From a virus, in IMG/VR virus record IMGVR_UViG_3300044580_000331: DNA of 30,953 nt. The stretch is one strand, 5' to 3'. The position numbers and the translations under genes were made by a program. Shown here in pieces: positions 1-24,211 of this stretch (its first letter is position 1; each line of letters begins with the position of its first letter). The notes beneath the pieces are model-generated. The model had not been told where the DNA came from, searched no databases, and saw only the letters and a program-made list of their open reading frames with translations.

Positions 1-270
1 AAGCTGTTTGGCAGATACTTTAGCGTAAGGGCGGGGCGTCGGAAGATTGACCATAGCTGGGGCGAGGGAGAGCTTGAGAACATCGGTAAGGACGCTGCGA
101 TTGATTATATGCAGATGCCTGAGAAGGTCAAGCAGATTGACAAGCGGCTAGCCAGGTTTGAGGTCAAGTTTGAGAAGCTTATCGAGGCTTTGGGTTGTCT
201 GGGGGATTTGGAGGCTTCGCCTGAGCGATTGGCTGAGGGTCAACGGCGGCTAGGAGAGTATGTGACATGA
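1..270 (+). CDS. Hypothetical protein, C-terminal part (5' truncated by window edge)
   Basis: Frame 1 open from base 1 to TGA 268-270 (KLFGRYFSV...KIDHSWGEGELE...EYVT*); stop overlaps ATG of next gene (ATGA). Confidence 0.6.
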   Translation, partial: KLFGRYFSVRAGRRKIDHSWGEGELENIGKDAAIDYMQMPEKVKQIDKRLARFEVKFEKLIEALGCLGDLEASPERLAEGQRRLGEYVT

Positions 271-1151
271 GAGTTGCCCTTGTCAATATTGAACCGAAAG
301 TTGAGAACACGGCTTACATGCAGATAAGTCAATATCACAAACAGCAAGGCGACACCGTGGAATGGTATAGCCCAATGTATCGCTATGAATACGATAAAAT
401 CTATTGCTCCAGCATTTTTGATTTTACCGATAAAAGCCAAGTGCCAAAAGAGGCTATCTGCGGCGGAACAGGCTTTAAAGACTTGATTGCTAAACGGTTG
501 CCTCCTGAGATTGAATCCTGCGACTTGGATTATTCTCTTTATCCGCGATGTAGGACCTCGTATATTTGGTTTTCAAGAGGATGCCCTAAAAATCATGATT
601 TCTGTGTGGTGCCACAAAAGGAAGGCAGACTTAGGTGTGTACAGCCTAAAAACCTCAATCCGAATGCAACCCGCGTAAGCGTTATGGATAACTCTTTTAC
701 TGCTTTACCTGACGCCGCCTTTTTTGGCGCTCTTAATTTTTTGGAGCGGTTAGGGTTACCTGTTGATTTTGAGTGTGGAATTGACTGTAGAATTGATGCG
801 CCTGAACGTTGGATCGCAATTCGTGATCGTTTGAAGATTTATCGCCAAATCAGGACCGCTTGGGATATTCCGAGCGAGGACCTGCGAGATGCTCTGAAAC
901 GATTTGCCGCCGTCTTTGGCACCTCAAAGGTCATGGTCTACGTGTTTATTGGGAAGGATTCCACGCCTGCAGAGGATTTAATGCGGGTTGAGGAGATTAG
1001 GAAACTCAAGCTCGATGCTTGGGTTATGCCCTATAACAAGAAGGACCGCTACCAAAAAGCGTTTGAGCGCTGGAATAATCGACACTGTAAATGTGACTGG
1101 AAGGATTACGATGTCAATGTAAAGAATTCAAGGCGGAGGGTTTCTGCTTGA
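267..1151 (+). CDS. Radical SAM-superfamily protein with short N-terminal B12-binding-like domain; variant CxxxHxxC cluster motif
   Basis: N-terminal VALVNIEP..N.AYMQISQYHKQQGD.VEWY pattern; SRGCPKNHDFCVVPQKEG at the radical SAM motif position; VMDNSF downstream. Confidence 0.7.
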   Translation: MRVALVNIEPKVENTAYMQISQYHKQQGDTVEWYSPMYRYEYDKIYCSSIFDFTDKSQVPKEAICGGTGFKDLIAKRLPPEIESCDLDYSLYPRCRTSYIWFSRGCPKNHDFCVVPQKEGRLRCVQPKNLNPNATRVSVMDNSFTALPDAAFFGALNFLERLGLPVDFECGIDCRIDAPERWIAIRDRLKIYRQIRTAWDIPSEDLRDALKRFAAVFGTSKVMVYVFIGKDSTPAEDLMRVEEIRKLKLDAWVMPYNKKDRYQKAFERWNNRHCKCDWKDYDVNVKNSRRRVSA

Positions 1152-1261
1152 GTTTGCAGGTTGGGTTGGCGCCGTGTCCTTGTCGCTTCTCTCAAATATG
1201 TGGAGATGTTACGGGGCCGCCTTACATGGATAAAGATTACAAGCCGGAGGTTAGCGATTAA
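1148..1261 (+). CDS. Small hypothetical protein (37 aa, TTG start)
   Basis: TTG overlaps the previous stop, and its TAA overlaps the next ATG (TAATG); below the ORF-track cutoff. Confidence 0.3.
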   Translation: MSLQVGLAPCPCRFSQICGDVTGPPYMDKDYKPEVSD

Positions 1262-1339
1262 TGAACGCTACACAACCACGGCGGGGGTATTGCCCCCACT
1301 TCGGGGAAGTGATGGATTTAGATAACTGTTTCTTTTGCC
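1261..1339 (+). pseudogene. 5' half of a small Cys-containing viral ORF interrupted by the transposon
   Basis: ATG 1261 MNATQPRRGYCPHFGEVMDLDNCFFC; continues in frame after the right TSD (HFKSNHTQPINP*, TAA 5362-5364) when the element and one TSD copy are removed. Confidence 0.45.
1332..1339 (+). repeat. Left target-site duplication CTTTTGCC
   Basis: Identical to 5319-5326 and abuts the TIR. Confidence 0.92.
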
Positions 1340-1431
1340 GGTTCTGTTAAGTTCTTAAGGGATTGACTTTTCCGTTAAGTTCCGTGGGATATTTCTGTTG
1401 GTTTTTTTCTCCATGTTAAGTGTCGTGGGAT
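1340..1431 (+). repeat. Left terminal inverted repeat (92 bp) with three internal ~17-bp GTTAAGT...GGGAT direct repeats
   Basis: Exact reverse complement of 5227-5318, checked base by base; sub-repeats start at 1346, 1374 and 1415. Confidence 0.95.
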
Positions 1432-1450
1432 AAACAAGGCATATCCTTAA

Positions 1451-1657
1451 ATGTCATTTAAAAACAGAAAACTAAGGTTGATAAAAATGTCAAAAAAAGC
1501 AAAAAGGAAAAGAACAGAAAAAGAAATATTGGAAGAAATTGAAATCCACTTATCGACACTTGGGTTATGTATGTCTGAATTGACTGAAACAATAAACCGA
1601 TTAACTCAAGAAATCAGGGAAAACAATAACTTAAGAAGAATAAGACACCCGACCTAA
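1451..1657 (+). CDS. Small basic/coiled-coil hypothetical protein (transposon passenger)
   Basis: 68-aa ORF (alternative start ATG 1487) converging on the transposase with overlapping stop codons. Confidence 0.5.
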   Translation: MSFKNRKLRLIKMSKKAKRKRTEKEILEEIEIHLSTLGLCMSELTETINRLTQEIRENNNLRRIRHPT

Positions 1658-2811
1658 TTCTTCTTGCTTGCATTCTCAATTATAGTTTTCCACTTATTAT
1701 TTCCCTCAATTACGATTCCGCAAGCATCTGCGGGAGTTTTACCGTCTAACGCTTCATGCGGTCTAATGAAATTGTGATAAAGCTGATAGCCCTTTAGAGT
1801 AGCCGTATCGTCAATCTTTAAACCTCTCATGACCTTTTCCCTATCCCTAACCTCTCCATTCATCCGTTCCATCTTGTTATTGTTCATATCACCACTTAGC
1901 TTAATGTGCCTAACGTGCTCAGTTCTTGGATTTTTTAGCGTGAAAAATTCCTTTTTATAAGCATCATGATAAGCGGGTAATCCATCGGTTATGAAAGTCA
2001 TAGGCTTCTTTCCAGTTGCTTCTTTTGCCATACGTAACAAGTTTCTTGCATCATGCTTATCCTTCGACTCTGCCACTTCTTGAGCTATCCAAAACCTTGT
2101 CTCATCATCCATCATGGCAAAGAGGTATTTCATGTTGCCATTAATCTTAACGTATAACTCATCGGCTCTCCAAGTGTCGCTTACATTTGGCTTTATTTTG
2201 GCTAAATATTCCGTCATTAGTGCGGTATACTTCTTTATCCATGCGTAAACTGCCACATGGCTAACCTTAACACCTTGCAGTTTAAGGAATTTCTGAACAT
2301 TCCTAAACGATTCCCCTGTGAAATAAAGTTGCATTGCCGATGTGATTATTTGCGGTGTAGCTCTCATACCCTCAAACCCTAAATTAAGGGTGAAATGTTT
2401 ACCGCATTTTTGGCAATGATAAACCTGTAAGTCACCGTGTTTGTTATGGCGAACCCCATCTTTCACTATCTCGGAAGAATGACAATAGATGCATTCGCCA
2501 ACGTTTTCTATCTGAGTGATTCTTTTGGTTACTTCTCTTAATGACTTGGAAAGCGCTACTGCAAAAATGTGTTTGCATTTTACGTGTCGGAATTGATAGT
2601 CTGGGCACTCACAGACTAATTCATTATCTACCTGAGCAACCGTGTATTCACCTTTTCCCGACTGTGACTTAACGATGTAAAGGCAATCATCTATTCGACT
2701 AACTTGATTTCCTTTCTTGCTTACTATCTCTGAGCCTCTTTGCTCTCGGAGATTTTCAAGTTCTTGTTTCATCATCATTCTACTTACCTTGTTACCTACA
2801 TGGTTACCCAT
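1654..2811 (-). CDS. tnp: IS6-family DDE transposase with N-terminal SWIM zinc finger and zinc ribbon
   Basis: SWIM CECPD...CKHIFAV; CIYC...CQKC ribbon; WRADELY, FITDG and NNKMERMNG catalytic DDE motifs; C-terminal YHNFIRPHEAL; real start probably ATG 2778-2772. Confidence 0.9.
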   Translation of the reverse strand: MGNHVGNKVSRMMMKQELENLREQRGSEIVSKKGNQVSRIDDCLYIVKSQSGKGEYTVAQVDNELVCECPDYQFRHVKCKHIFAVALSKSLREVTKRITQIENVGECIYCHSSEIVKDGVRHNKHGDLQVYHCQKCGKHFTLNLGFEGMRATPQIITSAMQLYFTGESFRNVQKFLKLQGVKVSHVAVYAWIKKYTALMTEYLAKIKPNVSDTWRADELYVKINGNMKYLFAMMDDETRFWIAQEVAESKDKHDARNLLRMAKEATGKKPMTFITDGLPAYHDAYKKEFFTLKNPRTEHVRHIKLSGDMNNNKMERMNGEVRDREKVMRGLKIDDTATLKGYQLYHNFIRPHEALDGKTPADACGIVIEGNNKWKTIIENASKKN

Positions 2812-2860
2812 TTATATAAACATGTTGGTAACAGTATAGGTAACCTTTTATATAGGTTAC
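2791..2860. promoter_or_regulatory. Divergent promoter between tnp and abrB-like gene: two TATA boxes flanked by GGTAAC/GTTACC repeats
   Basis: TTTATATAAA 2811-2820 and TTTTATATA ~2846-2854; GTTACC/GGTAAC/GGTTAC copies near 2791, 2802, 2827, 2839 and 2855. Confidence 0.55.
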
Positions 2861-2890
2861 AGATTAAGATACCTATTAAGGCGGATAAAA

Positions 2891-3121
2891 ATGGAAGACG
2901 ATAATGGAGAAACAACCAAATTAACCTTAGCCAAAACCGAAAGCACATCATTAAGAACAACAGTACCCATGAGTATCGTAAGGCAATTCAACCTGAAAAC
3001 AGGGGATAGACTAGGCTGGAAAATCGATATAAAAAATGGCGAATTAGTAGTAATTGTTAAACCTATTAGAGATTCCGAATCTAAAAATGATTTGAAAAAC
3101 TCCACTGGAAATATACGCTAG
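2891..3121 (+). CDS. AbrB/MazE/SpoVT-family DNA-binding protein
   Basis: SLRTTVPMSIVRQFNLKTGDRLGWKI...ELVVIV matches the swapped-hairpin AbrB pattern. Confidence 0.8.
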   Translation: MEDDNGETTKLTLAKTESTSLRTTVPMSIVRQFNLKTGDRLGWKIDIKNGELVVIVKPIRDSESKNDLKNSTGNIR

Positions 3122-3155
3122 GACTTAAGTAAAAGGTATTGATACATAGGAGAGA

Positions 3156-4448
3156 TTGAGAAAAATGGTGGAAATAGAGATAGGGCGACCAAAAGTTTCC
3201 GATAAGTTAACTGAAGTACGCAATTTAGTCTTAAATGGAAACGGGGAAACCAAAAACGTCGTTTTTAGAGACATCATGCCTTTACCGTCAACAACATACG
3301 CCACTTTTGGATTACACCGTTATCCTGCAAAATTTATTCCTCAAGTCATAGCATACATTCTTAATCAATACACCACACCTGACATGAAAATTTTCGACCC
3401 ATTTGGCGGCAGTGGCACAGTAGGCACCATGTCGCGACTTTATGGAAATGATTATGAACTTTGGGATTTGAACCCGATAATTGAAATTCTTCATGAAATA
3501 GCGACCATGAAGCCAAAAGAAATAGATGTTTCAGAAATCAGAAAACAGATGCTTGCAAGCGACAAAGAGTTTATTCCTGATTGGGATAGAATGCAAAATT
3601 GGTTCCCGAAAGAGTTTATGTCCTTCTTGTATAAAGCATGGGGATATTACCATTCAATAACTGATAAAGACCTACAACTTATTTTAACCGTGCCTCTGCT
3701 AAGAACAACAAGATACTTCTCTTTTGACGATATGCAAAGGCAAAAACTCACCAAATCCGACCGTTCAGAAGCAAGGGTTAACAACCTATTGAAAACAGAT
3801 TGGGAAAAACATTTCTTCCGTATGCTTCAGAATGAAACTATAAAGGTTCTTAATGGTATCCGTGAGTATAATTCTCTTGCACCAAAGAAGGTGAATGCCA
3901 TAGTTAAAGGTGGTGTAGATACTTTCACGGAAAAGTTAACTGAGAAAAAAGATGTTTTGATAACCTCCCCGCCTTATGTACAGTCGCAAGAATACATTCG
4001 CCAAGCCAAAATAGACCTGTTTTGGTTAGGTCATACTGAGGAAGAAGTAAAAGCATTAGGTAAATTAGAGATACCTTACAGAACAATAGAGCCGACAGAG
4101 ATATTCTCTGAAACATTCCGAGAATATGAAAAACAAATTGAGAAACCACATATCCGAAAAGTGTTTAATGCTTACTTTTGGGGTGTCGTTGGCGCACTTT
4201 CACGGTTACAAGAAGACATTACGTCACAGATGTTTCTTTTCGTTGGGCACTCAAGCACATGTGGTAAATCAACACCGATTGATAAGATACTTGTAGAGCA
4301 TTTTTCACATCTCGGTTGGCATCATAAAGCAACTTTAAGCGATACCATAGTTAGCCGCCGACTTTTCAGGTATAGATTAAACCCAGCAACTAAAACTCAA
4401 GATGCAAGAACATCGGTTGAAAACCTCGTGATTCTTGAAAAAGTTTAG
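3156..4448 (+). CDS. Amino-DNA methyltransferase, probably N4-cytosine, alpha motif order
   Basis: LHRYPAKF (motif X), FDPFGGSGT (motif I), and distal LITSPPY (motif IV) after a long target-recognition region. Confidence 0.85.
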   Translation: MRKMVEIEIGRPKVSDKLTEVRNLVLNGNGETKNVVFRDIMPLPSTTYATFGLHRYPAKFIPQVIAYILNQYTTPDMKIFDPFGGSGTVGTMSRLYGNDYELWDLNPIIEILHEIATMKPKEIDVSEIRKQMLASDKEFIPDWDRMQNWFPKEFMSFLYKAWGYYHSITDKDLQLILTVPLLRTTRYFSFDDMQRQKLTKSDRSEARVNNLLKTDWEKHFFRMLQNETIKVLNGIREYNSLAPKKVNAIVKGGVDTFTEKLTEKKDVLITSPPYVQSQEYIRQAKIDLFWLGHTEEEVKALGKLEIPYRTIEPTEIFSETFREYEKQIEKPHIRKVFNAYFWGVVGALSRLQEDITSQMFLFVGHSSTCGKSTPIDKILVEHFSHLGWHHKATLSDTIVSRRLFRYRLNPATKTQDARTSVENLVILEKV

Positions 4449-4459
4449 GAATTAAAACG

Positions 4460-4954
4460 TTATATTATTCCATATTCCCTTGCTTTTTGTAGGACATATG
4501 TTTGGTCTTTGCAGTTTTCAAGAATTTCATAGTTATTCTTTAGAGCTTGTATCCTATTGTTTGAAACGGATTTTGTTCCTAATGTTGCAATAAGGCATGT
4601 CGGAACAAAATAAAGCACTGGTTCACCATTTTCAAAATGTACACCCACAATACAGTCTGAGGTCTCTGGGCATTGAACGTATGTCTTGACATCTGACCTA
4701 TAGATTCTGTCCACTCCTCCTCGTGTACCACCCGTAAATTTGACTGAGTGCGTGGCTGTTTTGCATTGGAGTCTAAGAATGTCTTCTGTTCCGTCTGGTT
4801 TCTTCCTTACGATTATGATGTCGTACGGAGATAATGGTAACTCGACTGAAGAAACATTGCCATATTTTTTCATTAGAATGCCACATGCAATTTTCTCGTT
4901 TGCAAATCCTTCTATTGATGATTGCCTGCCTCTCTCTTCTTTTTCCTTAGCCAT
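4460..4954 (-). CDS. PD-(D/E)xK endonuclease, putative Type II restriction enzyme
   Basis: G..NE...SPYD...RLQCKT active-site pattern; converges on the methyltransferase gene. Confidence 0.7.
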   Translation of the reverse strand: MAKEKEERGRQSSIEGFANEKIACGILMKKYGNVSSVELPLSPYDIIIVRKKPDGTEDILRLQCKTATHSVKFTGGTRGGVDRIYRSDVKTYVQCPETSDCIVGVHFENGEPVLYFVPTCLIATLGTKSVSNNRIQALKNNYEILENCKDQTYVLQKAREYGII

Positions 4955-5186
4955 TAACGTTCATCCTTCCTTTATTTCTAAAATGGGGTTCGACCCCTGC
5001 TACAATACACCATTTATCGTTTGCCTCTTTAACGACTCCTTGCCTAGAAAGAAGAATAAGACTATCTCTAACCTTAACTCTATTGTTTGCATTGGTTAGT
5101 TTCTTAGTTTTTATAACATTAAAAATCTCATCTATAGTTGCATTTTTTAGTTCTGTTAGAATGTTGTAGACAATTCGTTGGCTCAT
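4947..5186 (-). CDS. Small winged-helix-like DNA-binding protein, co-transcribed with the nuclease
   Basis: IVYNILTELKNATIDEIFNVI...VRDSLILLSRQGVV...W helix-helix-wing pattern; overlaps the nuclease start by 8 nt. Confidence 0.5.
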   Translation of the reverse strand: MSQRIVYNILTELKNATIDEIFNVIKTKKLTNANNRVKVRDSLILLSRQGVVKEANDKWCIVAGVEPHFRNKGRMNVNG

Positions 5187-5226
5187 GTTACCCTTTGTTG
5201 ATGGTTTACAAATAAAAGTTTATCCC

Positions 5227-5318
5227 ATCCCACGACACTTAACATGGAGAAAAAAACCAACAGAAATATCCCACGGAACTTAACGGAAAAGTCAATCCCT
5301 TAAGAACTTAACAGAACC
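5227..5318 (-). repeat. Right terminal inverted repeat (92 bp)
   Basis: Exact reverse complement of 1340-1431. Confidence 0.95.
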
Positions 5319-5326
5319 CTTTTGCC
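5319..5326 (+). repeat. Right target-site duplication CTTTTGCC
   Basis: Identical to 1332-1339. Confidence 0.92.
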
Positions 5327-5365
5327 ACTTTAAGAGTAATCATACACAACCAATTAACCCCTAAC

Positions 5366-5400
5366 CTTAAATACTACCGTATCGTAGTACCTATTGAGGT
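5366..5400 (+). promoter_or_regulatory. Putative promoter/operator and RBS of the early operon
   Basis: CTTAAATA TATA-like box overlapping inverted repeat TACTAC-N6-GTAGTA (5372-5389); GAGGT RBS before ATG 5409. Confidence 0.4.
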
Positions 5401-5408
5401 AAAACAAA

Positions 5409-5726
5409 ATGAACACCGTAAACCCAACCCAAAAAGCAACACAATTATTATTAGCACTTGACAAACAAGGCGCAGACATCCTAACCTTTGAATGGGCTTT
5501 ACAAACTGGTAGATTAGCAGCAATGGACTACGACATAATGATGTTTATAAAAGCTGGCAATTTAGCAGCAACAAACGATGCACTAAGAGACGCTTACCGC
5601 TACTACTTCCAAAGCATGAAAAGCGCGTCTGTTGAGGAGTTGACCGCTAAAAAGTGGTTAAGCAAAAGCGCAATGGTGTTAGCCTCAAAGATAGCAAAAA
5701 CTCAATGGTTCCAAAAGGTTGACTAA
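5409..5726 (+). CDS. Hypothetical protein (helical)
   Basis: 105-aa ORF with GAGGT RBS. Confidence 0.7.
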   Translation: MNTVNPTQKATQLLLALDKQGADILTFEWALQTGRLAAMDYDIMMFIKAGNLAATNDALRDAYRYYFQSMKSASVEELTAKKWLSKSAMVLASKIAKTQWFQKVD

Positions 5727-5727
5727 A

Positions 5728-5850
5728 ATGGCTAAAGAACTTTTAATGTGGACTTGCCCGAAATGCGGCAAAGTTATAACATCCCTTTATACCCGACAAT
5801 TCGAGCAGAACAAGAAAGCTCATTTAGAAACACACCCGGAGGGCGCTTAG
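5728..5850 (+). CDS. C2H2-type zinc-finger microprotein (40 aa)
   Basis: MAKELLMWTCPKCGK...KAHLETHPEGA; ATG 1 nt after the previous stop; not in ORF track. Confidence 0.6.
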   Translation: MAKELLMWTCPKCGKVITSLYTRQFEQNKKAHLETHPEGA

Positions 5851-6027
5851 TTGTCTGGTGCTGTTGGTCCTGACGGTTGGCCTTTAGGCGAAAAACGCTA
5901 TCACTGTGCAAACTGCGACTTTGCCATAGATGGCAAGCCATGTGAAAAGCATGGCATACTTCAAGAGGATGGCACAGTCAAACCATTCAATAATAGCAAA
6001 GAAACCACAGGAGCCAAACAACCATGA
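5851..6027 (+). CDS. Small zinc-binding hypothetical protein (58 aa, TTG start)
   Basis: HCANC...PCEKH; directly follows the previous stop, and its stop overlaps the next ATG (ATGA). Confidence 0.5.
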   Translation: MSGAVGPDGWPLGEKRYHCANCDFAIDGKPCEKHGILQEDGTVKPFNNSKETTGAKQP

Positions 6028-6293
6028 CAGATAAACGAACCTTAAGAGAACGCTTAGAAGAGGTAGAGATTACAGACGGACACGCTGGTGTTGTTATCGC
6101 CTGTGTGTCTGAATGGTTAACTGGCATACTTCTGGATAAACAGAAAACTTACGAGTATTTGCAAGAGAAAGCAAAGCACGACATAATCCATCGGTCAATG
6201 TATTTTATGAGTGGAGCAGAGACAGACGTTTTAAAGGAACTCATAGCCGAACTTGCATCTAACAACCAGAAACCAATCAAGGGGAGCGAGTAA
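6024..6293 (+). CDS. Hypothetical protein
   Basis: 89-aa ORF, translationally coupled. Confidence 0.6.
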   Translation: MTDKRTLRERLEEVEITDGHAGVVIACVSEWLTGILLDKQKTYEYLQEKAKHDIIHRSMYFMSGAETDVLKELIAELASNNQKPIKGSE

Positions 6294-6294
6294 T

Positions 6295-6459
6295 ATGGAA
6301 GGCGTAAACTTTACCTTTAGTGAAACTGAAGACGGTTTCGATAAAATGATAGCATTGATTCAGAATATCTATCTTGAGTCAGATTCATGGGATTTCAAAG
6401 TTGAGATTACCAAAGAACAAGGAACTTATAACGTCTGGATAGGTGACAAAGATGAGTAA
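6295..6459 (+). CDS. Small acidic hypothetical protein
   Basis: ATG 6295 in the frame of track ORF 6253-6459, 1 nt after the previous stop. Confidence 0.55.
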   Translation: MEGVNFTFSETEDGFDKMIALIQNIYLESDSWDFKVEITKEQGTYNVWIGDKDE

Positions 6460-6667
6460 CTGGCAAGCATACCCAGACTGTTATAATTGCGGTAAAACTG
6501 GGCCATGTCCTTGTTTCACTGTTACAGCCGCAAGTATGATCGAATGCACCGTAAATCAAACAGGGATAAGCAGCGTAAGCGGCCTTTCAAGTCGCGCCCT
6601 AAAACTCAGATTAATGAATCACAAGGAATGCAAAAACCATGAGCGAGCAAAAAGTAGCATGGTATAA
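6452..6667 (+). CDS. Cys-rich hypothetical protein
   Basis: DCYNCGKTGPCPC motif; overlaps the previous stop. Confidence 0.45.
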   Translation: MSNWQAYPDCYNCGKTGPCPCFTVTAASMIECTVNQTGISSVSGLSSRALKLRLMNHKECKNHERAKSSMV

Positions 6668-6880
6668 ACGGAACCCTGAGAAAATACAAAAAACTCGCCG
6701 CGAAGTCTACTACATGTGAGATTAAAGGTAAGTGCCCATTTGCGTATAATGCGAGTATTACAAAATGCACCGATGGAAAAGCAATCACGGAGGCTAAAGA
6801 GTAATGCCGAGCGAATACTCAACTGGCTGTAGTGACTGTGGGCATCCGCTTGAGCGTTGTATCCAAGAGGAGGCTTTGAG

Positions 6881-7054
6881 TTGACGGGTAGGGAGTTTAG
6901 CGGAGTATTCAGGGAGCGATATTGTTGGCGATATAAAGAGTGCGCTCGGTGTCATGAAGCCTTCGTGGAAGGGGATAGGATTGTTTCTCGTAATCGTGGG
7001 AAGCGTCACCGGGTTGTGTATCACAAAAAATGCTGGGAGGGCATGCAGGTTTGA
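6881..7054 (+). CDS. Small zinc-finger protein (CxxC...HxxC)
   Basis: KECARCHEAFVEGDRIV...YHKKCW; GGAGG RBS ahead of TTG 6881. Confidence 0.6.
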   Translation: MTGREFSGVFRERYCWRYKECARCHEAFVEGDRIVSRNRGKRHRVVYHKKCWEGMQV

Positions 7055-15991: not shown

Positions 15992-16507
15992 ATGTGGTTT
16001 ATCAAAAAACTTAAGAAATTACTTAGTCACAGCGTTAGCTTTGATGTTGAGGCGGAAACATATTGGAGTTTCCAAGTCATACGAAACGGTAAAGTTATTG
16101 CGGAATCTGCACCTGTGCATAATGTGACTACTAATGCGGGGTTGAATGTTGCTCGGGCTATCTTGCATCAGGCTGCTCATGGTGGTATTGCGGGGTTTGA
16201 TAAGTTAACGGTGGGTAGTACGGATTATACGCCTGCGGCTGGCGATACGTCGTTGACTGGTGAAGTGAATGCAGATGGTTTAGAGCGGGTGTCTGGCACT
16301 TATAGTAATGAGGCGGGTACGGGGGCGTGGAAGCTTGAAACGACTTTTACTTACACTGGGTCGGGTGTCACTGTTTATACGGGGGCTGTTTTTAATTCTG
16401 CTTCTGGCGCTACTATGATGTATGCGGCAAAGTTTGCTTCGTCTGCTACATTGGTAAATGGAGATCAGTTAAGGGTCATTGTGACGGGTTCGGTAGCGGC
16501 GGCATAG
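15992..16507 (+). CDS. Virion structural protein resembling collar/fibre-base domains
   Basis: HNVTTNAG...LTVGS....PAAGDTSLTGE...R pattern; GGAG RBS. Confidence 0.55.
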   Translation: MWFIKKLKKLLSHSVSFDVEAETYWSFQVIRNGKVIAESAPVHNVTTNAGLNVARAILHQAAHGGIAGFDKLTVGSTDYTPAAGDTSLTGEVNADGLERVSGTYSNEAGTGAWKLETTFTYTGSGVTVYTGAVFNSASGATMMYAAKFASSATLVNGDQLRVIVTGSVAAA

Positions 16508-16583
16508 AGGGGGTTAAATTTGGAGATGGGGAATAATGATAAACTGTTTTTTAACCCAAGCAACTGGTACAGTAGGTTAAGGT

Positions 16584-19133
16584 ATGCGAATCCGTAAATG
16601 GTTAACTCACCTTTTCCCAAAAAGGGTTTTTTTCTGCCCAAAATGCAAAAACCCAATTGAACAAAACACCCAACAATGTCCTTATTGCGGTGAAAAGTTT
16701 CCGCTAAACTTCGCCGTTAAATGCCCAAGAAAACTATTACAGCGAGAGCATGAAAAAGAGTTATCGGCGTATGTTCACCAAAAGATTTTTCCATCACTCA
16801 GCGAAACACACCGTAACTATTTAGCAAGATACTTCACAACGTTTTTCACGAACGGGTTTGAAGAAGGTGATTTAAGTGCTTGGGATTCAACAGGTGGAAC
16901 CCCCGAAGCATCCACAACATCACCTTACACTGGAACATACTGCCTCAAACTTGACGGTGATTATGATAGAGTATTCAAAACCATAACATCATCAGACGTA
17001 ATGTATGCCCAAGCGCGAGTAAAATGGACAAGCAATCCCGATAGCGGACAAAACTTCTCATTATTCTTTATTGAACATTCAAACTGGAACATGGTTGTCG
17101 GCGCAAATATTTACAACGATTCAGGAACAATCAAATGGCGATTAGCATATCTCGACAGCGGATTCACTGAACAATATGTTACGGTTTCGTCGCCTAACCC
17201 AACAACAAACACATGGTATCTTGTAGAGTTATACTTCGACAAAACTACAGGAACAGGAAAACTTTACGTTGACGGTGTAGAATTAGCATCAACCACATCG
17301 GTTATAACATACTATCAAGCCACAGAAATATTACTTATTAACGTAAAATCAGGCGGCACTTCACCCACAATTTATTACGATGACATCGTTGTCGCCGATG
17401 CCTATATCGGAACATACGATTTTAACGACGGCTTCGAAAGCAACGATTTCAGTAAATGGTCAACCGCTAACGGCTCAATTCAATCTACAACCAAATACTC
17501 AGGCACCTACGCCGCTCAATTCACTCAATGGCAAGCCGCAGTCCGAACAGGTACAGCAGGCAACGAAAAATACGTACAAGCAAGAGTCTATCTTAGTTCA
17601 ATGTCGGGCACCGACGCATCCAGCGAAATTTTGATGCTCTCACAGTCTGCTGGAACAAGCGTCAGTGTCATCGTAAAAGATGTTAGTGGCACCAAACACT
17701 TCTATTTACGAGACGATTGGGGAAGTGAATACGATAGCGGCATCACAGCATCAACGGATCAATGGTACCTCATTGAATTAAGCTACAAAAAAAACACTTC
17801 TGGATGGTTCAAACTCTGGATAGACGGCACACTCGAAGTGGAACAAACAGGCGACACATCAGGACACATGACTACAGCCGACACAATCATCGGTGGATAT
17901 AACCTTGACAGTTTAACAATCACCCGAATAATTGACGATGTTAAAGTTTCCGACAGCTACATCGGCACAGACACACCTAACCCAATTACATTTATTACAC
18001 AAGTCAGCAACGTAGACTCAGTTGCCGACATCGGCTCCCATTCAAACTTCGCCAACCAACAAGCCGACGACTCAACCTACGACACCTTAACGGAAGCCAA
18101 CACCGTTACACAAGGTTCGTTAACTTACCGCACCGCTCAAAACGCACAAGGAACCTCACTAACCAGCCCCTACGATGTAACCGTAAACAAACCAACAGGA
18201 ATCGTAGAAGGCGACATTATCTTCGTCGCTGTAGCATGGTACACAACCAGCGGATACACGATAGACGGTGTACCGTCAGGGTTTACTTCACTTGGTTCAT
18301 ACACTTCTAACTCTGACAAATATGCGTTGTATTATAAAATTGCTGGAGCAAGTGAGCCATCCAGTTATACTTTCAGTTTCAGCAACACAGTAAAATACAA
18401 AATCACCAGCTTCGGATACTCTGGAGGTTCTTTTAACCCATCCGACCCAATAGATGTCGTTTCAAACACTGCATACCGAACATCCGGCACCACTGTTCGA
18501 GCAGCTTCAATGACAGTTGCTAATGCTAATTCGCCACTCATTTTCATCGGTATGCAATACAACACGTCATCTCAAACCTTCACTAAACCTTCCGTACCCA
18601 CATCTGATTGGGTTGAAAATTACGATTCAGGAAGTACAACACCTGACTTTTGGTTTGAATTCTGTAGCATGATTTGGTCAGGTAGTGGCGCAACAGGAAA
18701 CATGGATGCTACTTCAACTGGTAGCAACGGAACAAAACATGCATTCGCTGTAGCACTGAAACCTATTCCACCCAACTATCGCCTTGAATTAGAGGAAGAA
18801 TTCACCGACATCCCCTACTCAAGCTACACAACTTGGACTCTCCATGTAAAAACAGGTAGTTACAGCAGCCCCGCAGAAACCCTCAACATCCAAATCCGCG
18901 ACGGCTCCACTTGGACAACACTCGGAGCATTAACAGCTTCAACTGACAACACCTTCAATGTAACTAGCTACATAGTGGCATCCACAGAGCAAATCCGTTT
19001 TATCGACGGCACAACCAGCGACGATGTCACACAATCTACATGGCAAATAGACGCCGTATGGCTCGAAGGAAGCAACATCACTGTGAGTATTCCAGTTATT
19101 ATGCATCACCTAAAACAGATGGGAATAAGCTAA
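16584..19133 (+). CDS. Large multidomain adhesin/fibre protein with tandem concanavalin A/LamG-like domains
   Basis: Two repeats beginning NGFEEGDLSAW / DGFESNDFSKW and ending YYDDIVV / IIDDVKV; Ser/Thr-rich beta domains; N-terminal CPKC..CPYC ribbon. Confidence 0.7.
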   Translation: MRIRKWLTHLFPKRVFFCPKCKNPIEQNTQQCPYCGEKFPLNFAVKCPRKLLQREHEKELSAYVHQKIFPSLSETHRNYLARYFTTFFTNGFEEGDLSAWDSTGGTPEASTTSPYTGTYCLKLDGDYDRVFKTITSSDVMYAQARVKWTSNPDSGQNFSLFFIEHSNWNMVVGANIYNDSGTIKWRLAYLDSGFTEQYVTVSSPNPTTNTWYLVELYFDKTTGTGKLYVDGVELASTTSVITYYQATEILLINVKSGGTSPTIYYDDIVVADAYIGTYDFNDGFESNDFSKWSTANGSIQSTTKYSGTYAAQFTQWQAAVRTGTAGNEKYVQARVYLSSMSGTDASSEILMLSQSAGTSVSVIVKDVSGTKHFYLRDDWGSEYDSGITASTDQWYLIELSYKKNTSGWFKLWIDGTLEVEQTGDTSGHMTTADTIIGGYNLDSLTITRIIDDVKVSDSYIGTDTPNPITFITQVSNVDSVADIGSHSNFANQQADDSTYDTLTEANTVTQGSLTYRTAQNAQGTSLTSPYDVTVNKPTGIVEGDIIFVAVAWYTTSGYTIDGVPSGFTSLGSYTSNSDKYALYYKIAGASEPSSYTFSFSNTVKYKITSFGYSGGSFNPSDPIDVVSNTAYRTSGTTVRAASMTVANANSPLIFIGMQYNTSSQTFTKPSVPTSDWVENYDSGSTTPDFWFEFCSMIWSGSGATGNMDATSTGSNGTKHAFAVALKPIPPNYRLELEEEFTDIPYSSYTTWTLHVKTGSYSSPAETLNIQIRDGSTWTTLGALTASTDNTFNVTSYIVASTEQIRFIDGTTSDDVTQSTWQIDAVWLEGSNITVSIPVIMHHLKQMGIS

Positions 19134-20083
19134 TGACCATACCCTTAAAGTATAATACTGCAAGTCAAGAGGTTCCCATAGGGCCTTTTTTGGATGATAC
19201 TGATGGGAAAACTGCTGAAACTGGATTAACTATTGCGAATACCGATATTAAGTTGTGGAAGAATGGCGCCACAACCTTAGCGAATAAGAACAGTGGCGGC
19301 GCAACTCACATTAGCGGTGGCATATATTACGCGGTTCTTGATGCTACCGATACGAACACTAAAGGCCCTATGGTGATGTTTGTGCAGGTGTCGGGTGCTT
19401 TGCCTGTTCGGGTGGAATGTGAAGTTTTAGACGCGAACTTTTTTGATGCACGTTATGGTGATGACCGTTTACAGGTGGACGTCCGAGAAAAAGGTGACAG
19501 TTCTCTTGCGCTTACTACACAGGAAAAAGCAGATGTCAATGCCGAAGTAGATGGGGCGTTAGATACTGCGGTGCCTGCGTCGCCTACTGCTAACAGCATC
19601 AATGAACGAATTAAAACTATGGATGATGCTTACACGGCTACTCGCGCAGGTTACTTAGATAACATTAATAACGCGAACCTTGCGACTGTTCCAGCGATTA
19701 CATCAGCCCGTATCGGCTACCTTGATAACATTAACAACCCGCAATTGTTGAATATATCCAGCACTATTCTTGGTAGAATTGATGCGGCAATAAGTAGCCG
19801 AAGTAGTCACAGCGCCGCTGATGTTTGGAGTGTAGCCACACGTAGCTTGACTGATAAAGAAGGGTTCCGTCTTTCAGCTACAGGCGTTGATGATGTGCTC
19901 GATGAAGTCTGCGAAAACGGTTTGACTCTTCGGCAGATGTTGCGAATTTATCTGGCTGCTTTAGCTGGAAAAAGCAGCAACTATGGCAGTACTTTCCGTG
20001 ATAATGCAGATAGCAAAAACCGTATCGTTGCAACTACAGACACCGATGGCAACAGAACTGCTGTGACATTGGATGGAACATAG
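19133..20083 (+). CDS. Putative virion fibre/structural protein
   Basis: TAATG coupling; beta-rich N-terminus, internal repeat GYLDNINN x2, helical stalk-like region. Confidence 0.6.
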   Translation: MTIPLKYNTASQEVPIGPFLDDTDGKTAETGLTIANTDIKLWKNGATTLANKNSGGATHISGGIYYAVLDATDTNTKGPMVMFVQVSGALPVRVECEVLDANFFDARYGDDRLQVDVREKGDSSLALTTQEKADVNAEVDGALDTAVPASPTANSINERIKTMDDAYTATRAGYLDNINNANLATVPAITSARIGYLDNINNPQLLNISSTILGRIDAAISSRSSHSAADVWSVATRSLTDKEGFRLSATGVDDVLDEVCENGLTLRQMLRIYLAALAGKSSNYGSTFRDNADSKNRIVATTDTDGNRTAVTLDGT

Positions 20084-20084
20084 T

Positions 20085-20780
20085 ATGGGTGCGTATTTCA
20101 GTGCAAAGTATCTTTCCACACGCTATTGTAGTAGGCGGTATTTCAGCAGAAGTACACTGACCACATTAATTGAGCGATCCATCACTGCCGCTGCAGCCTT
20201 GTCAAGTAATTTAGGGCGGCAATTCAAACCTATTCGCAACTTAACTGTTGCTGCAACGTTGCAGGGCGGGTTTAGTCGCTGGTTTAGCGGGATTAGGGTC
20301 TTCAACGCTAACGCCTCTCTGGCATCTATATTAAGTAAAGCCTTTCTGTTTGTCAGGGGCTTCACATCCACATTAACAATCCAAGCCGGCTTAACATCAA
20401 AAATCACGTTGTTCATACGCCAATTAAGCGCCTCTTTAACAGCTTCCAGCACGTTTAGCCGCCTCTATACTGCCCTAAGAGGCTTCAACGCTTCAACTTC
20501 AGTGACCTCAGGCTTTAACCGCATATCAACAACCATTCGAACCTTCACAGCATCACTGAGTTTTTCCGCTAGCTTAAGCCGCTGGCTATCAGCCGCCCGA
20601 ACATTCACCGCCCAACTCACCGTATCCTCTGTATTGCTTAAGCACATAACTCGCGTTATTCGGCGGCTCTATTTGTATGCTACTCGCAGAAGCCAAGCTG
20701 CAGAGACCCAACGGCGCCATGGCACTCTCAGCGGAGAACGCCGCAACCTCACTATAACAAGCGAAAAAGGAGAAAAATAA
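20085..20780 (+). CDS. Protein with about eight ~20-aa tandem repeats
   Basis: Repeats such as IRNLTVAATLQGGFSRWFSG / IRQLSASLTASSTFSRLYTA / IRTFTASLSFSASLSRWLSA. Confidence 0.6.
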   Translation: MGAYFSAKYLSTRYCSRRYFSRSTLTTLIERSITAAAALSSNLGRQFKPIRNLTVAATLQGGFSRWFSGIRVFNANASLASILSKAFLFVRGFTSTLTIQAGLTSKITLFIRQLSASLTASSTFSRLYTALRGFNASTSVTSGFNRISTTIRTFTASLSFSASLSRWLSAARTFTAQLTVSSVLLKHITRVIRRLYLYATRRSQAAETQRRHGTLSGERRNLTITSEKGEK

Positions 20781-20782
20781 AC

Positions 20783-21418
20783 ATGACCCACCCCGGAGAT
20801 AGCTATATAGAAACCTTAACTTTCAAAGATGACAAGGGCGAACTCTATGACCCTATGTCGGTGACGGTGTCGTTTATTTCGCCGTCAAAAACCGTAGAGG
20901 GTGCTTTGTCTATTTTGGATTTGACGCGGACTGGTGAGGGTGTTTATGAGTTGGTTTGGAGTTTGCCTGTTGACGCGGCGAGTGGTACTTGGGTTAGGCG
21001 GGTAGTTGCCACTACTGATGACGATAAAACTTTGACGTTTGAGGAGCCTTTTAACGTATCTACGCAGCCCTATGGTACCTTGTCAGTGGTGAAGCGTCTC
21101 TGTAATTTGTCTGATACAACGGCTAAAGATGTTGATTTGTCAGGTTATTTGGATGATGCCACTGACTTCATCAATACCGCTCTGCGGCGTGCAGGGGAGT
21201 CGCGTTTGCCGCTTGATCCTGTGCCGCCAGAAATAGCTCGAATCGCTAGTTTTTATGCTGCGGGGATGTTTTTGCAGCGGGATACTGCTGATGCGCGGCA
21301 CCCGTATGTGTCGGATGCTAAAGCAGAATTAGAGGCCTACATACAAGCTGCTTATCATACTGCGTCGAGGGCTCCTAAAATCTTTGTGACTAGTGAAGTG
21401 TTAGGTGAAGATGACTAA
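20783..21418 (+). CDS. Head-tail connector (gp6/gp15-like) fused to an N-terminal Ig-like domain
   Basis: C-terminal YGTLSVVKRL...YLDDATDFINTAL...P.VP..IARIA..YAA helical adaptor pattern; N-terminal beta domain (LTRTGEGVYELVW). Confidence 0.6.
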   Translation: MTHPGDSYIETLTFKDDKGELYDPMSVTVSFISPSKTVEGALSILDLTRTGEGVYELVWSLPVDAASGTWVRRVVATTDDDKTLTFEEPFNVSTQPYGTLSVVKRLCNLSDTTAKDVDLSGYLDDATDFINTALRRAGESRLPLDPVPPEIARIASFYAAGMFLQRDTADARHPYVSDAKAELEAYIQAAYHTASRAPKIFVTSEVLGEDD

Positions 21419-21857
21419 AGCCGATATTGTTTCTTTGTTATCTTCTAATTTAGCTACGCTCACCTATCGTAACCGTACGGCGCGTGTTGCGGTGGTTGCT
21501 TGGTATGTTCCTGCAAACATGCAAAAAGATTACCTGCAAAACGAGAAAGCCGATGTACTTATCAGCGTCAAAGAAGCTGAATCAGTCTCTAGCCGTTTCT
21601 TAAGCACCCTAAGAGTGCCATACACCCGAAAAACCCAATTTGAGGTTGGCGTGTGGCTGCTGGATTCTCCGAGTTATACGCGGGGTGAAAAAGATGTTTT
21701 ACGTGATGCTGCAGTGGCAGAGGTGCAGCGGATTTTTAAAGCCAACCCAACCTATGGCTGCGAGCGGGGTGTCAGAAATGACGACCACGTCTATGGTAAA
21801 GTTTGGGTGCTTTCTTCAATCGTCACAGTTCAGTCTATAACTGAATCAACAACATAA
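21411..21857 (+). CDS. Putative tail terminator/completion protein
   Basis: Position after connector, size about 148 aa; synteny only. Confidence 0.4.
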   Translation: MTKADIVSLLSSNLATLTYRNRTARVAVVAWYVPANMQKDYLQNEKADVLISVKEAESVSSRFLSTLRVPYTRKTQFEVGVWLLDSPSYTRGEKDVLRDAAVAEVQRIFKANPTYGCERGVRNDDHVYGKVWVLSSIVTVQSITESTT

Positions 21858-21877
21858 ATGGAGGAAAAAAATTAGAT

Positions 21878-22321
21878 ATGCCTGATACAAATTTAAGTGA
21901 AAACAGTCCCGTGTCCATAACAATTGGAGCCACCACCTATACTAGCGTTGTGTCTGTTGCATTGCGTTTTCAGCGTGCAGGAGGCGGCGAAATGGTCACT
22001 TCGAGAACTGTGGCGAATAGTCATGTGCCTATAGGCGTCACTGACCACCCCAAAGAATGCGTGCTTGTTGTCGTTTTAGATGCGGATGTTGTGCCCGCGT
22101 TAATGACCTCTAACTACTTGAATATGTCGGGCGCTAACGCGGCTCCCTCAGCTTTGGTTATTACAGAAAAAAACACGGCTGGCGCCACCCGCACCGTCAC
22201 CTTCACCGCCGCCAACTGCAAAATCCAAAATGTCGCCCCAAAAAATGTGGTAGAAGGCGAACAACACGTCGAAATCACATTCCTAACCTACGGCTCGATA
22301 ACTTACAGTGCATTTGCATAG
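21878..22321 (+). CDS. Putative tail tube protein
   Basis: 147 aa, beta-rich, follows the putative terminator; GGAGG RBS; synteny-based. Confidence 0.4.
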   Translation: MPDTNLSENSPVSITIGATTYTSVVSVALRFQRAGGGEMVTSRTVANSHVPIGVTDHPKECVLVVVLDADVVPALMTSNYLNMSGANAAPSALVITEKNTAGATRTVTFTAANCKIQNVAPKNVVEGEQHVEITFLTYGSITYSAFA

Positions 22322-22334
22322 GAGACGGTACGAA

Positions 22335-22547
22335 ATGAGTTTTGAGGAACTTGAACAAAAACTCAAAGCCATCCCCGGAGTCGTCGATGTTCAACTGGTG
22401 GACCGCAAACTCTCAGTAAACTACTTGCCTAACTGTGACCATAATAAAATCACTGATATGCAGTTAGCTGTGGCTCTTGCTGTTTCTGATGCGAAATTGG
22501 ATGTTGTTTTCATAGATTACATAAAAGCGGCTGTCGATGCAGTTTAA
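22335..22547 (+). CDS. Small hypothetical protein
   Basis: ATG 22335 after GGAGA RBS. Confidence 0.55.
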   Translation: MSFEELEQKLKAIPGVVDVQLVDRKLSVNYLPNCDHNKITDMQLAVALAVSDAKLDVVFIDYIKAAVDAV

Positions 22548-22812
22548 AACCTTGCTAGCCGCGCTCCGTAATAAAGGGCGGGGGCGTGAAGCAGATTACT
22601 ATTTGCGTGCGGTGTCTGCGCATTTTCATGGGGTTCTCTCAGCTGAGGCTATCGGTGAATTAGACGTTGATGAAATCGCTAGCGTGTTGACTCTTGTTGG
22701 GTTGTTTGCTAAAGTCACTATGCCTTCTCCGCTAGCTGCGTATGTTGCTGATTTGCAAGCTCGGGGTTTTAGTGTATCTGTGGGGGAGAAGTACCGAAAA
22801 TGCCTACGTTAA
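22537..22812 (+). CDS. Hypothetical protein (possible tail assembly chaperone)
   Basis: Overlaps neighbours; position upstream of tape-measure-like gene. Confidence 0.45.
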   Translation: MQFKTLLAALRNKGRGREADYYLRAVSAHFHGVLSAEAIGELDVDEIASVLTLVGLFAKVTMPSPLAAYVADLQARGFSVSVGEKYRKCLR

Positions 22813-23168
22813 CTCTTTTTGGGTCGCTAGCTGAAATACGTGCAAAGTTGCAGCGTATTCGGGGGGTTTGTATGTTGCGGGCTGCTGAGGGTTGGCCTGT
22901 TTTGCAGCATGACGAAACTTGGCTTTATCATATATCTCAAGATGGTAAGGCTTGTCCGACTTGTACTCCTTTTGACAGTAATTCTTATCGTGGGGACTAC
23001 TTGCTCTACGAGTTTCCTTTCCTTGAGGTTCTTTCGCCTTTTAAAGCGTTGGTTCATAATGAAACTAGTTTTCATGCGGCATTGCGGTGTCAATGTAGTG
23101 TTGAATGGGTTAATCCAAGTGAGGTTTTGGTGCAACGGTTGATGGCGGAGTTTGAGGCTGTTTTATGA
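22800..23168 (+). CDS. Cys-containing protein resembling a second MuF-like domain
   Basis: WLYHISQDGKACPTC...Y...P...H....LRCQC echoes the W...D.K.C..C...HPNCRC pattern. Confidence 0.45.
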   Translation: MPTLTLFGSLAEIRAKLQRIRGVCMLRAAEGWPVLQHDETWLYHISQDGKACPTCTPFDSNSYRGDYLLYEFPFLEVLSPFKALVHNETSFHAALRCQCSVEWVNPSEVLVQRLMAEFEAVL

Positions 23169-24178: not shown

Positions 24179-24211
24179 TTAAATAATATTTCTTAAAGGA
24201 GAAAAACCAAC

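Follow-up and report, generated by a model that had tools for sequence, protein, structure and literature searches.

What is the 4-kb block of DNA that separates two viral genes in IMG/VR virus record IMGVR_UViG_3300044580_000331, and how did it come to be there? The DNA analysed here, called the window throughout, is that whole 30,953-nucleotide record. Positions 1340 to 5318 of the window (3,979 bp) are bounded by long inverted repeats and encode a transposase of the IS6 family of insertion sequences together with genes resembling a restriction-modification (R-M) system. Our reading, to which we assign a probability of about 0.85, is that an IS6-lineage unit transposon, still intact, inserted here recently, between two genes of a tailed double-stranded DNA virus most likely infecting Bathyarchaeia.

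Ends and overall anatomy of the element

A repeat search returned one outstanding inverted repeat in the window, formed by positions 1340-1431 and 5227-5318. The 92-nt arms are 100% complementary, which is far above chance expectation. Reading of the sequence outside the arms identified an 8-bp target site duplication (TSD), CTTTTGCC, abutting both of them; an 8/8 flank match has a chance of about 1.5e-5. Both terminal inverted repeats (TIRs) begin with GGTTCTGTTAAG, which is an IS6-type tip, and the G+C content of the element is 37-39% compared to 45-48% in the flanks. The boundary features are as follows.

1332-1339, no strand: left TSD copy, CTTTTGCC, single in six empty-site contigs
1340-1431, plus strand: transposase-proximal TIR, 92 bp, tip GGTTCTGTTAAG, with direct copies of a motif of about 18 bp at 1346-1363, 1374-1391 and 1415-1432
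5227-5318, minus strand: cargo-side TIR, 92 bp, perfect mirror of 1340-1431, with sites at 5295-5312, 5267-5284 and 5226-5243
5319-5326, no strand: right TSD copy, CTTTTGCC, followed one base further by the TATA-like CTTTAAGAG

A first-pass annotation, made from the sequence alone, had described 92-bp TIRs and an 8-bp TSD around a self-contained unit transposon. The repeat search and the sequence read agreed with it in every coordinate and feature. Besides the transposase gene, five open reading frames (ORFs) and about 2.7 kb of non-transposase DNA lie within the single pair of ends. The repeated motifs of about 18 bp are putative transposase-binding sites.

Empty sites in related viral contigs

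Repeats and mobile elements commonly cause chimeric assemblies, and only a single filled allele was seen. Both facts would fit an assembly artefact in which a chromosomal transposon was misjoined into a virus contig, a danger that the first-pass annotation had raised. The element-free allele was found through the 105-residue protein encoded directly to the right of the element (5409-5726), for which an exact look-up returned contigs from six other samples. All six contigs align to the window on both sides at 97.5-100% identity. Their left alignments stop at 1339 and their right alignments start at 5319, overlapping by exactly 8 bp, such that each contig contains one CTTTTGCC and no element (position 1339 is joined directly to 5327). 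For example, contig L187 matches window positions 70-1339 and then 5319-6884. A chimera would not give a perfect 8-bp duplication of a target that is single in six empty-site contigs, nor would it leave both virus flanks collinear, and the 8-bp length agrees with 42 other end pairs of the family described below. A misassembly is thus highly improbable. As the target sequence is single in all six contigs, the element must have entered an existing virus lineage recently, duplicating 8 bp. From these data we conclude that this is a recent genuine insertion rather than an assembly artefact. The self-contained unit transposon of the first-pass annotation is therefore seen both filled, with one IS6-type transposase and its other genes in one end pair, and as empty sites in sister virus contigs.

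The element lies between a radical-SAM gene (267-1151) and the gene starting at 5409; as the site is intergenic, no gene was broken. No tRNA gene and no Rfam family were found at the target site. A search of IMG/VR gave no exact match to the predicted empty site, and two other candidates were rejected. Contig L179 was recovered by a metagenome scan for the predicted empty junction and does contain a seventh empty site. It is a mosaic contig that matches the window over only about 110 bp around the target, and was dropped as the main empty-site evidence in favour of the six clean ones. IMG/VR contig L176 carries a radical-SAM gene that is 75% alike, but the DNA downstream is unrelated.

Three observations concern the same neighbourhood. 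The stretch of about 110 bp around the target (window 1260-1348 without the element; L179:1515-1616) recurs at 99% identity in an otherwise unrelated contig and contains a GGGGG...CCCCC hairpin; it may be a mosaic module, e.g. a terminator or promoter. A second indel polymorphism exists in the same virus population: a 158-bp segment (5851-6008) is present in the window, L187 and L190, and absent from L185, L186, L188 and L189, which are otherwise 100% identical around it. The radical-SAM-like viral protein matches phrog_9298 (E 1.6e-55) and contains CPKNHDFC where CxxxCxxC is expected. It has a 77%-identical copy in L176, and exact look-up of the protein returned no record.

Genes of the element

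The features between the two TIRs are as follows; L003 and L024 are two related elements described below.

1451-1657, plus strand: orphan ORF, 68 residues, lysine-rich, in a 235-bp segment (1432-1666) missing from L003 and L024
1654-2811, minus strand: IS6-type DDE transposase (NF033587, PF13610, PF04434) with N-terminal SWIM zinc finger, zinc ribbon and helix-turn-helix (HTH)
2812-2890, no strand: predicted divergent promoter/operator region, with two TATA-like boxes (2811-2820 and 2847-2855) and five GGTAAC/GTTACC half-sites spanning 2791-2860
2891-3121, plus strand: small DNA-binding protein of the AbrB/SpoVT (MazE-fold) type (PF04014), first gene of the cargo operon, divergent from the transposase gene
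3156-4448, plus strand: type II DNA methyltransferase (PF01555; PADLOC MTase_II PDLC03322), motif I DPFGGSGT, motif IV TSPPY
4460-4954, minus strand: PD-(D/E)xK-fold nuclease, 164 residues, putative restriction endonuclease, assigned by model and fold search, with conserved E20, D45 and Q63-x-K65
4947-5186, minus strand: probable winged-helix protein, 79 residues, assigned from the neighbours of its ESM Atlas model; overlaps the nuclease start by 8 bp

The transposase scored 136.8 bits against NF033587, the NCBI IS6 equivalog model (cut-off 125), and fell under the cut-off of each of the IS1, IS481, IS3, IS66 and IS256 models. It also matched PF13610 (DDE_Tnp_IS240, E 1e-18) and the Pfam SWIM zinc finger PF04434. 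In an alignment with the IS26 and IS1216 transposases, the sequences of which came from phage records, D217, D276, E315 and the HTH region were invariant, with R322 following; the three acidic residues were invariant in 20 archaeal relatives as well. The score above the IS6 cut-off and the aligned triad bear out the IS6-type DDE transposase recognized in the first-pass annotation. The N-terminal 145 residues or so, comprising a SWIM CxC...CxH motif and then CxxC...CxxC, have no counterpart in IS26. As its relatives begin at the MMMKQ methionines, the true start of the protein is probably one of the ATGs at 2778-2770. The databases contained 5,351 relatives, the closest of which is 92% identical; the named ones are from Bathyarchaeia and other Thermoproteota, mostly Bathyarchaeia.

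The small protein encoded divergently from the transposase scored 27.1 bits against the swapped-hairpin family PF04014, just over the cut-off of 24.7, and its equivalent in L009 scored 25.0 bits. An antisense ORF over the gene (2857-3105, minus strand) clusters with ORFs of other loci; it was rejected as the AbrB frame is the stronger, with 27 hits versus 10. An AbrB-like gene lies divergent from, and at most 400 bp away from, 24 of 87 related transposase genes, beside differing cargoes. With a partner at only 24 of these 87 genes, it does not qualify as a universal core gene; in the remaining elements this position is taken by a small gene that is of the ribbon-helix-helix (RHH) type, more distantly AbrB-like or unidentified. 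We conclude that the AbrB-like gene is a frequent, although not universal, transposase partner more than it is cargo. The AbrB-like identity proposed in the first-pass annotation stands. The region of 79 bp between the two genes, extended into the start of the transposase ORF, contains the boxes and half-sites listed above, and a similar palindrome is found at the same place in L003. This arrangement suggests an operator-controlled divergent promoter pair.

The putative restriction-modification cargo

The other products had been annotated as a methyltransferase, a PD-(D/E)xK nuclease, a winged-HTH protein and an orphan. The first of these assignments is borne out: the methyltransferase scored 27.8 bits against PF01555 (cut-off 26.7) and matched PADLOC MTase_II PDLC03322 over its full length (90.5 bits, E 2.5e-26). 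DPFGGSGT (the S-adenosylmethionine motif) and TSPPY (the catalytic (S/D)PPY) were conserved in methyltransferase alignments, and M.PvuII gave a weak match. For the nuclease, an AlphaFold2 (AF2) model was built with 23 homologues, yielding a predicted local distance difference test score (pLDDT) of 84 and a predicted template-modelling score (pTM) of 0.81. The best Foldseek match of this model was I-Ssp6803I (E 2.6e-4; template-modelling (TM) scores of 0.57/0.62), and further matches included Hjc, NhoI, HinP1I, SwaI, SfiI, RecU and HhaI. E20, D45, Q63 and K65 were invariant in 24 sequences. The confident model, the fold matches and the invariant residues together support the predicted PD-(D/E)xK fold.

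The nuclease has 578 relatives. The window and L003 both have its gene next to that of a methyltransferase homologue, as do three unrelated bacterial genomes. In all three bacterial contexts the neighbouring product is methyltransferase-sized (413-431 residues); two of the three are 59-61% identical to the window methyltransferase and the third carries an N6_N4_Mtase domain. Because the gene pairing is conserved and the nuclease fold and motifs agree with it, we infer that the two genes form a type II R-M pair.

The element could also be real and its cargo not a defence system. The pair would then act as a selfish module, of addiction or homing type, or consist of an orphan methyltransferase and a repair- or resolvase-type nuclease; its sole effect would be to stabilize or spread the transposon. 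R-M systems can act as addiction modules. The top fold match of the nuclease is a homing endonuclease, the Holliday-junction resolvases Hjc and RecU come after it, and no restriction-enzyme profile matches the protein. On the other hand, the type II enzymes NhoI, HinP1I, SwaI, SfiI and HhaI are fold matches too, the nuclease gene strictly adjoins, in three unrelated bacterial genomes, that of a full-length type II methyltransferase (59-61% identical), as is classic for R-M systems, and addiction and restriction can coexist. We consider the alternative unlikely and retain the type II R-M pair as the preferred reading of the cargo. Roles in superinfection exclusion, anti-restriction or addiction are speculation.

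The remaining two ORFs are small. The ESM Atlas model of the 79-residue protein resembles winged-helix domains of the ArsR, TrmB, DeoR and BlaI types (TM 0.68-0.71). Since its single-sequence AF2 model was poor (pLDDT 50), the Atlas neighbours were used, as a lead only. The protein had no Pfam match and no relatives among the fetched loci, and it is absent from sister element L003. The earlier winged-HTH assignment is thus supported by the Atlas neighbours but not by the AF2 model or Pfam, and a role as R-M controller, based on gene position, is a guess. The 68-residue ORF had no Pfam or PADLOC match and no homologues among the fetched loci, so it is still an orphan and is only a possible coding gene.

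A family of related elements in archaea

Relatives of the transposase are encoded by 244 stretches of species-representative genomes, and the family analysis covered the best 78 of these 244 loci. Their sources are Bathyarchaeia, Methanoperedens and ammonia oxidisers, with three further bins that bear bacterial labels; nearly all of the loci are archaeal. One assembly labelled as bacterial, DATHCJ01 ('Candidatus Limnocylindrales bacterium'; loci L024, L006 and L026), encodes two TFIIB genes and no sigma-70 domain; from this combination the genome appears to be a mislabelled archaeon.

A script that required GG-tipped inverted ends and identical 8-bp flanks identified 43 end pairs with a perfect 8-bp TSD across the 78 loci, or 42 without one locus that had been fetched twice. 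The elements are 2,333-7,638 bp long; none has the size of a bare insertion sequence and all carry extra genes. Single genomes contain 3-7 diverged transposase copies, not identical ones. Among 105 cargo ORFs of at least 100 residues, the domains counted were N6_Mtase (8), Eco57I (6), HSDR_N (3-4), N6_N4_Mtase (2), GmrSD (2), HNH (2), Methylase_S (2) and BsaWI endonuclease (1). Also present were PIN, DprA, TBP and proteasome-type genes and many unknowns. R-M is thus the commonest recognizable cargo.

Comparison of individual elements shows that even similar transposition modules can carry different cargo. In sister L003 the transposase is 92% identical to that of the window, and the nuclease, methyltransferase, AbrB-like and transposase genes are shared at 83% nucleotide identity between different flanks. 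L024, with a transposase 90% identical, carries another R-M system, a 762-residue fused nuclease-methylase-specificity protein (type IIG/type I-like). The element L004, on a 3.05-Mb chromosome and with 24-bp TIRs and the TSD CGGTTCAC, is flanked by a proteasome gene on one side and an alcohol dehydrogenase gene on the other; in it, an AbrB-like gene accompanies a methyltransferase and a BsaWI-type endonuclease. One more relative adjoins type I M and S genes. In the right flank of L003 (L003:3599-3650), a run of ten Ns is followed by 14 bases as in the left flank (GCTATCAAATGAAG); the N run may mark where scaffolding joined a filled to an empty allele.

The ends of nearly every element have the same layout, with a GGTTCTG tip, a motif of about 18 bp, a spacer of about 10 bp and a second copy of the motif. 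A third copy occurs at about +76 in the subgroup of the window (the window, L003, L024 and L040), such that the perfect 92-bp TIR is a three-site end. The tip is GG(T/A)(T/A/G)CTG in 42 of 42 related elements, and the two or three sites of the relatives span 50-95 bp. The motif varies among subgroups, yet the two ends of any one element share it, while the spacers diverge; this covariation argues for specific binding sites.

Two kinds of target recur. For 14 of 41 elements, the end or an end remnant of another element is exactly 8 bp away, compared to 0.02% of random positions. Of the other 27 elements, nine have on their cargo-side flank a TATA-like box no more than 16 nt away (3% at random), and the window site, where CTTTAAGAG follows the right TSD copy after one base, belongs to this class. 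In two arrays (L015:4705-16020 and L048:1448-6943), two different family members are arranged head to tail in the order TSD-element-TSD-element-TSD, with the same 8 bp at all three junctions (TGATAAAG and TGATATTT, respectively). In these arrays the second element reused the target duplication of the first; as a sign of cointegrate transposition the shared TSD is suggestive only.

The first-pass annotation had proposed a family of unit transposons with variable cargo and suggested looking for paired TIRs and TSDs around homologous transposases. The 42 further bounded pairs, their size range, the predominance of R-M genes and the different cargo of L024 beside a 90%-identical transposase all agree with that proposal.

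The virus and its host

The window encodes a large terminase (TerL; phrog_979, E 1e-104), a major head protein (phrog_1650), a head-tail connector (PF05135) and a portal protein that matches phrog_12 and, under the 39.1-bit cut-off, PF04860 (E 9e-07, 28.8 bits). An HTH protein in the position of a small terminase and a 1,302-residue beta-helix protein are also encoded, and no integrase or cellular genes were seen in the 31-kb window. We conclude that the window is from a tailed virus. A gene of the early region (7030-7398) encodes a DUF559/Vsr-like endonuclease fold (PF04480, E 1.3e-07).

Megablast of the virus against GenBank phages gave no match. TerL relatives were found in 5 of 301 Bathyarchaeia-class genomes, and a 44.6-kb contig in a genome of this class, which encodes TFIIB and no sigma-70, is collinear with window positions 10,158-28,270, from terminase to tail genes. 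The sole named homologue of the capsid protein is from a Bathyarchaeota metagenome-assembled genome. Moreover, the transposon must derive from a cell in which the virus replicated, and since its relatives are archaeal this supports an archaeal host. Bathyarchaeia are thus the probable host, and the archaeal virus of the first-pass annotation is upheld by the collinear contig and the capsid homologue to that extent, the host being only probably archaeal.

The window could instead be a bacteriophage or a defective bacterial prophage, with the relatives of the transposon misleading about the host. The PHROG matched by TerL consists largely of proteins from bacterial phages, and hundreds of TerL relatives (50-60% identical) occur in IMG/VR contigs whose host is unknown. 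A few transposase relatives come from bacterial-labelled bins, and the methyltransferase-nuclease pair occurs in bacteria too. This explanation appears improbable given that archaea account for nearly all of the best 78 transposase loci, including the 'Limnocylindrales' genome by its TFIIB and lack of sigma-70, and that both the collinear contig and the sole named capsid homologue are from Bathyarchaeia or Bathyarchaeota. The TATA-like boxes of the element lie at the right distance from gene starts, and neither cellular genes nor an integrase gene occur in the 31 kb.

A profile scan of IMG/VR identified four more full-length transposase relatives, all on tailed-virus contigs. The 76-kb contig L181 has a 2,937-bp element with 40-bp TIRs and the TSD GCGTGTGG, a few kb from a tail gene, and the 55-kb contig L182 has a 2,584-bp element with the TSD CTTGCCTA that adjoins a reverse transcriptase and a tail protein. 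The relatives in L183 and L180 lie near a tape-measure gene and a terminase gene, respectively. We conclude that virus-borne copies are rare but recurrent. The idea that these elements hitch-hike on viruses, put forward in the first-pass annotation, gains from these four contigs with tail, tape-measure or terminase genes, two of which have TIRs and TSDs. The reverse transcriptase beside the L182 transposon (L182:11275-13655) is of the diversity-generating-retroelement type (phrog_1423, E 6e-125).

Proposed mechanism and significance

The following model is consistent with these features. The SWIM/zinc-ribbon/HTH N-terminus of the transposase would bind the three 18-bp sites at each end, and the enzyme would cut the target with an 8-bp stagger. 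Donor and target may then form a cointegrate, as for IS26 and other IS6 members, a route suggested by family membership; host recombination between the two 4-kb copies would resolve it and leave one copy in the virus. The AbrB-like protein might bind the GGTAAC repeats between the divergent promoters and control both the transposase and the cargo operon. The type II pair, with the small winged-helix protein as controller, would methylate the DNA of the virus itself, and the nuclease would cleave unmethylated DNA of a rival virus or of the host chromosome. Loss of the element could thereby become costly. The binding of the 18-bp sites, the control by AbrB, the restriction activity and a benefit to the virus (killing of rivals or host DNA, self-protection or addiction) are all predictions from sequence features.

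Several points weigh against our reading of the locus as a recently inserted IS6-lineage unit transposon with R-M cargo in an archaeal virus. The filled allele is known from one assembly only. The long multi-site ends are unlike those of classical IS6 elements, and the choice between cointegrate and cut-and-paste chemistry is an inference only. The nuclease has no sequence-family match in Pfam, NCBIfam, PADLOC or PDB sequences, and since it most resembles a homing endonuclease in structure, it may have some function other than restriction. Assignment of the host depends on binning and on the relatives of the transposon, making an archaeal host likely but not proven; TerL relatives of 50-60% identity also occur commonly among IMG/VR contigs whose host is unknown. 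Finally, three family members are in bacterial-labelled bins; one of these bins is archaeal, and the other two members are on contigs of 4-6 kb in bacterial or mixed bins.

A wider proposal is that an archaea-wide, IS6-derived lineage has turned into true unit transposons that are a main vehicle moving R-M and other defence genes between archaeal chromosomes and viruses, for which we see about an even chance. Such a lineage would be characterized by one SWIM/zinc-finger DDE transposase, often an AbrB- or RHH-type regulator, two- or three-site ends, and insertion beside promoters or beside the ends of other members. If this is true, viruses can gain complete defence systems in one step and ferry them between hosts. 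The filled/empty polymorphism indicates that archaeal viruses can acquire a whole R-M system by a single transposition, which bears on competition between viruses, host killing and the spread of defence genes. The element is small and has clear ends, and a genetic tool for archaea might be built from the 92-bp end and one protein.

Comparison with known systems

Cargo-carrying DNA transposons are central to bacterial gene flow, yet a 2019 survey of thaumarchaeal mobile elements stated that passenger-gene transposons were not detected in archaea (PMC6563490). The element and its 42 bounded relatives constitute an IS6-derived lineage that carries genes, mostly R-M, inside one long multi-site end pair. 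Text searches of the literature returned no closer description of an archaeal cargo-carrying IS6-type family. A paper on Bathyarchaeia viruses (PMC10848311) does not mention transposons, and such elements are likewise not covered in a 2026 survey of archaeal immunity. The first-pass annotation had left it uncertain whether the architecture was already catalogued; its claim of novelty is compatible with a 2021 review of the IS6 family, which records one passenger-carrying member and TIRs of 15-20 bp (PMC7986276).

Members of the IS6 family are 0.7-0.9 kb long, have 15-20 bp TIRs, make 8-bp TSDs, transpose by cointegrate formation and build two-copy pseudo-compound transposons (PMC7986276). As in IS26, IS257/IS431, IS1216 and IS6100, the transposase of the element passes the IS6 model (it is 26-27% identical to those of IS26 and IS1216), the HTH and the D, D and E columns are conserved, the tips are GG...cTGTt (GGTTCTGTT) and the TSD is 8 bp. 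Unlike classical members, which have a single ORF in 0.7-0.9 kb (at most about 1.8 kb) and depend on two-copy composites to mobilize cargo (PMC7986276), the element spans 3,979 bp, with five further ORFs in one end pair, 92-bp TIRs with three sites, a 145-residue SWIM/zinc-ribbon N-terminal extension of the transposase and an AbrB-like partner gene. It therefore agrees with the IS6 family in transposase, tips and TSD, and departs from it in size, gene number and TIR length.

Further parallels within the family are the members of clades h and i, with longer transposases of 340-450 residues and an N-terminal CxxC zinc finger, and ISDsp3, the single IS6 member with a passenger gene (PMC7986276). 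In that review zinc-finger extensions are recorded only in these two clades, which are clostridial. Compared by description, clades h and i and ISDsp3 differ from the element in being bacterial. The passenger of ISDsp3 is one hypothetical gene in a single copy, and neither R-M cargo, multi-site ends nor an archaeal or viral distribution is described for any of them.

In organization the element resembles Tn7-like elements (PMC8649781) and the Tn3 family, which combine one set of transposition genes with variable, defence-rich cargo and multi-site ends; like them, it would serve to shuttle defence genes. Their machinery is un- or distantly related to that of the element, which has a single IS6-type DDE protein and no TnsABC or TnpR. 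Furthermore, they duplicate 5 bp rather than 8 bp, and the elements described here are far smaller, with archaeal and viral hosts.

Among viruses, phage P1 carries the EcoP1 res/mod genes and insertion sequences, chloroviruses carry R-M systems, and the Halobacterium phage PhiH carries ISH1.8; IS26 copies also occur in P1-like phages. These cases resemble the window in that a virus genome holds a complete R-M pair or was hit by an insertion sequence. They differ from it in that here the R-M genes come as the cargo of a single transposon, and both filled and empty alleles are seen in a natural virus population.

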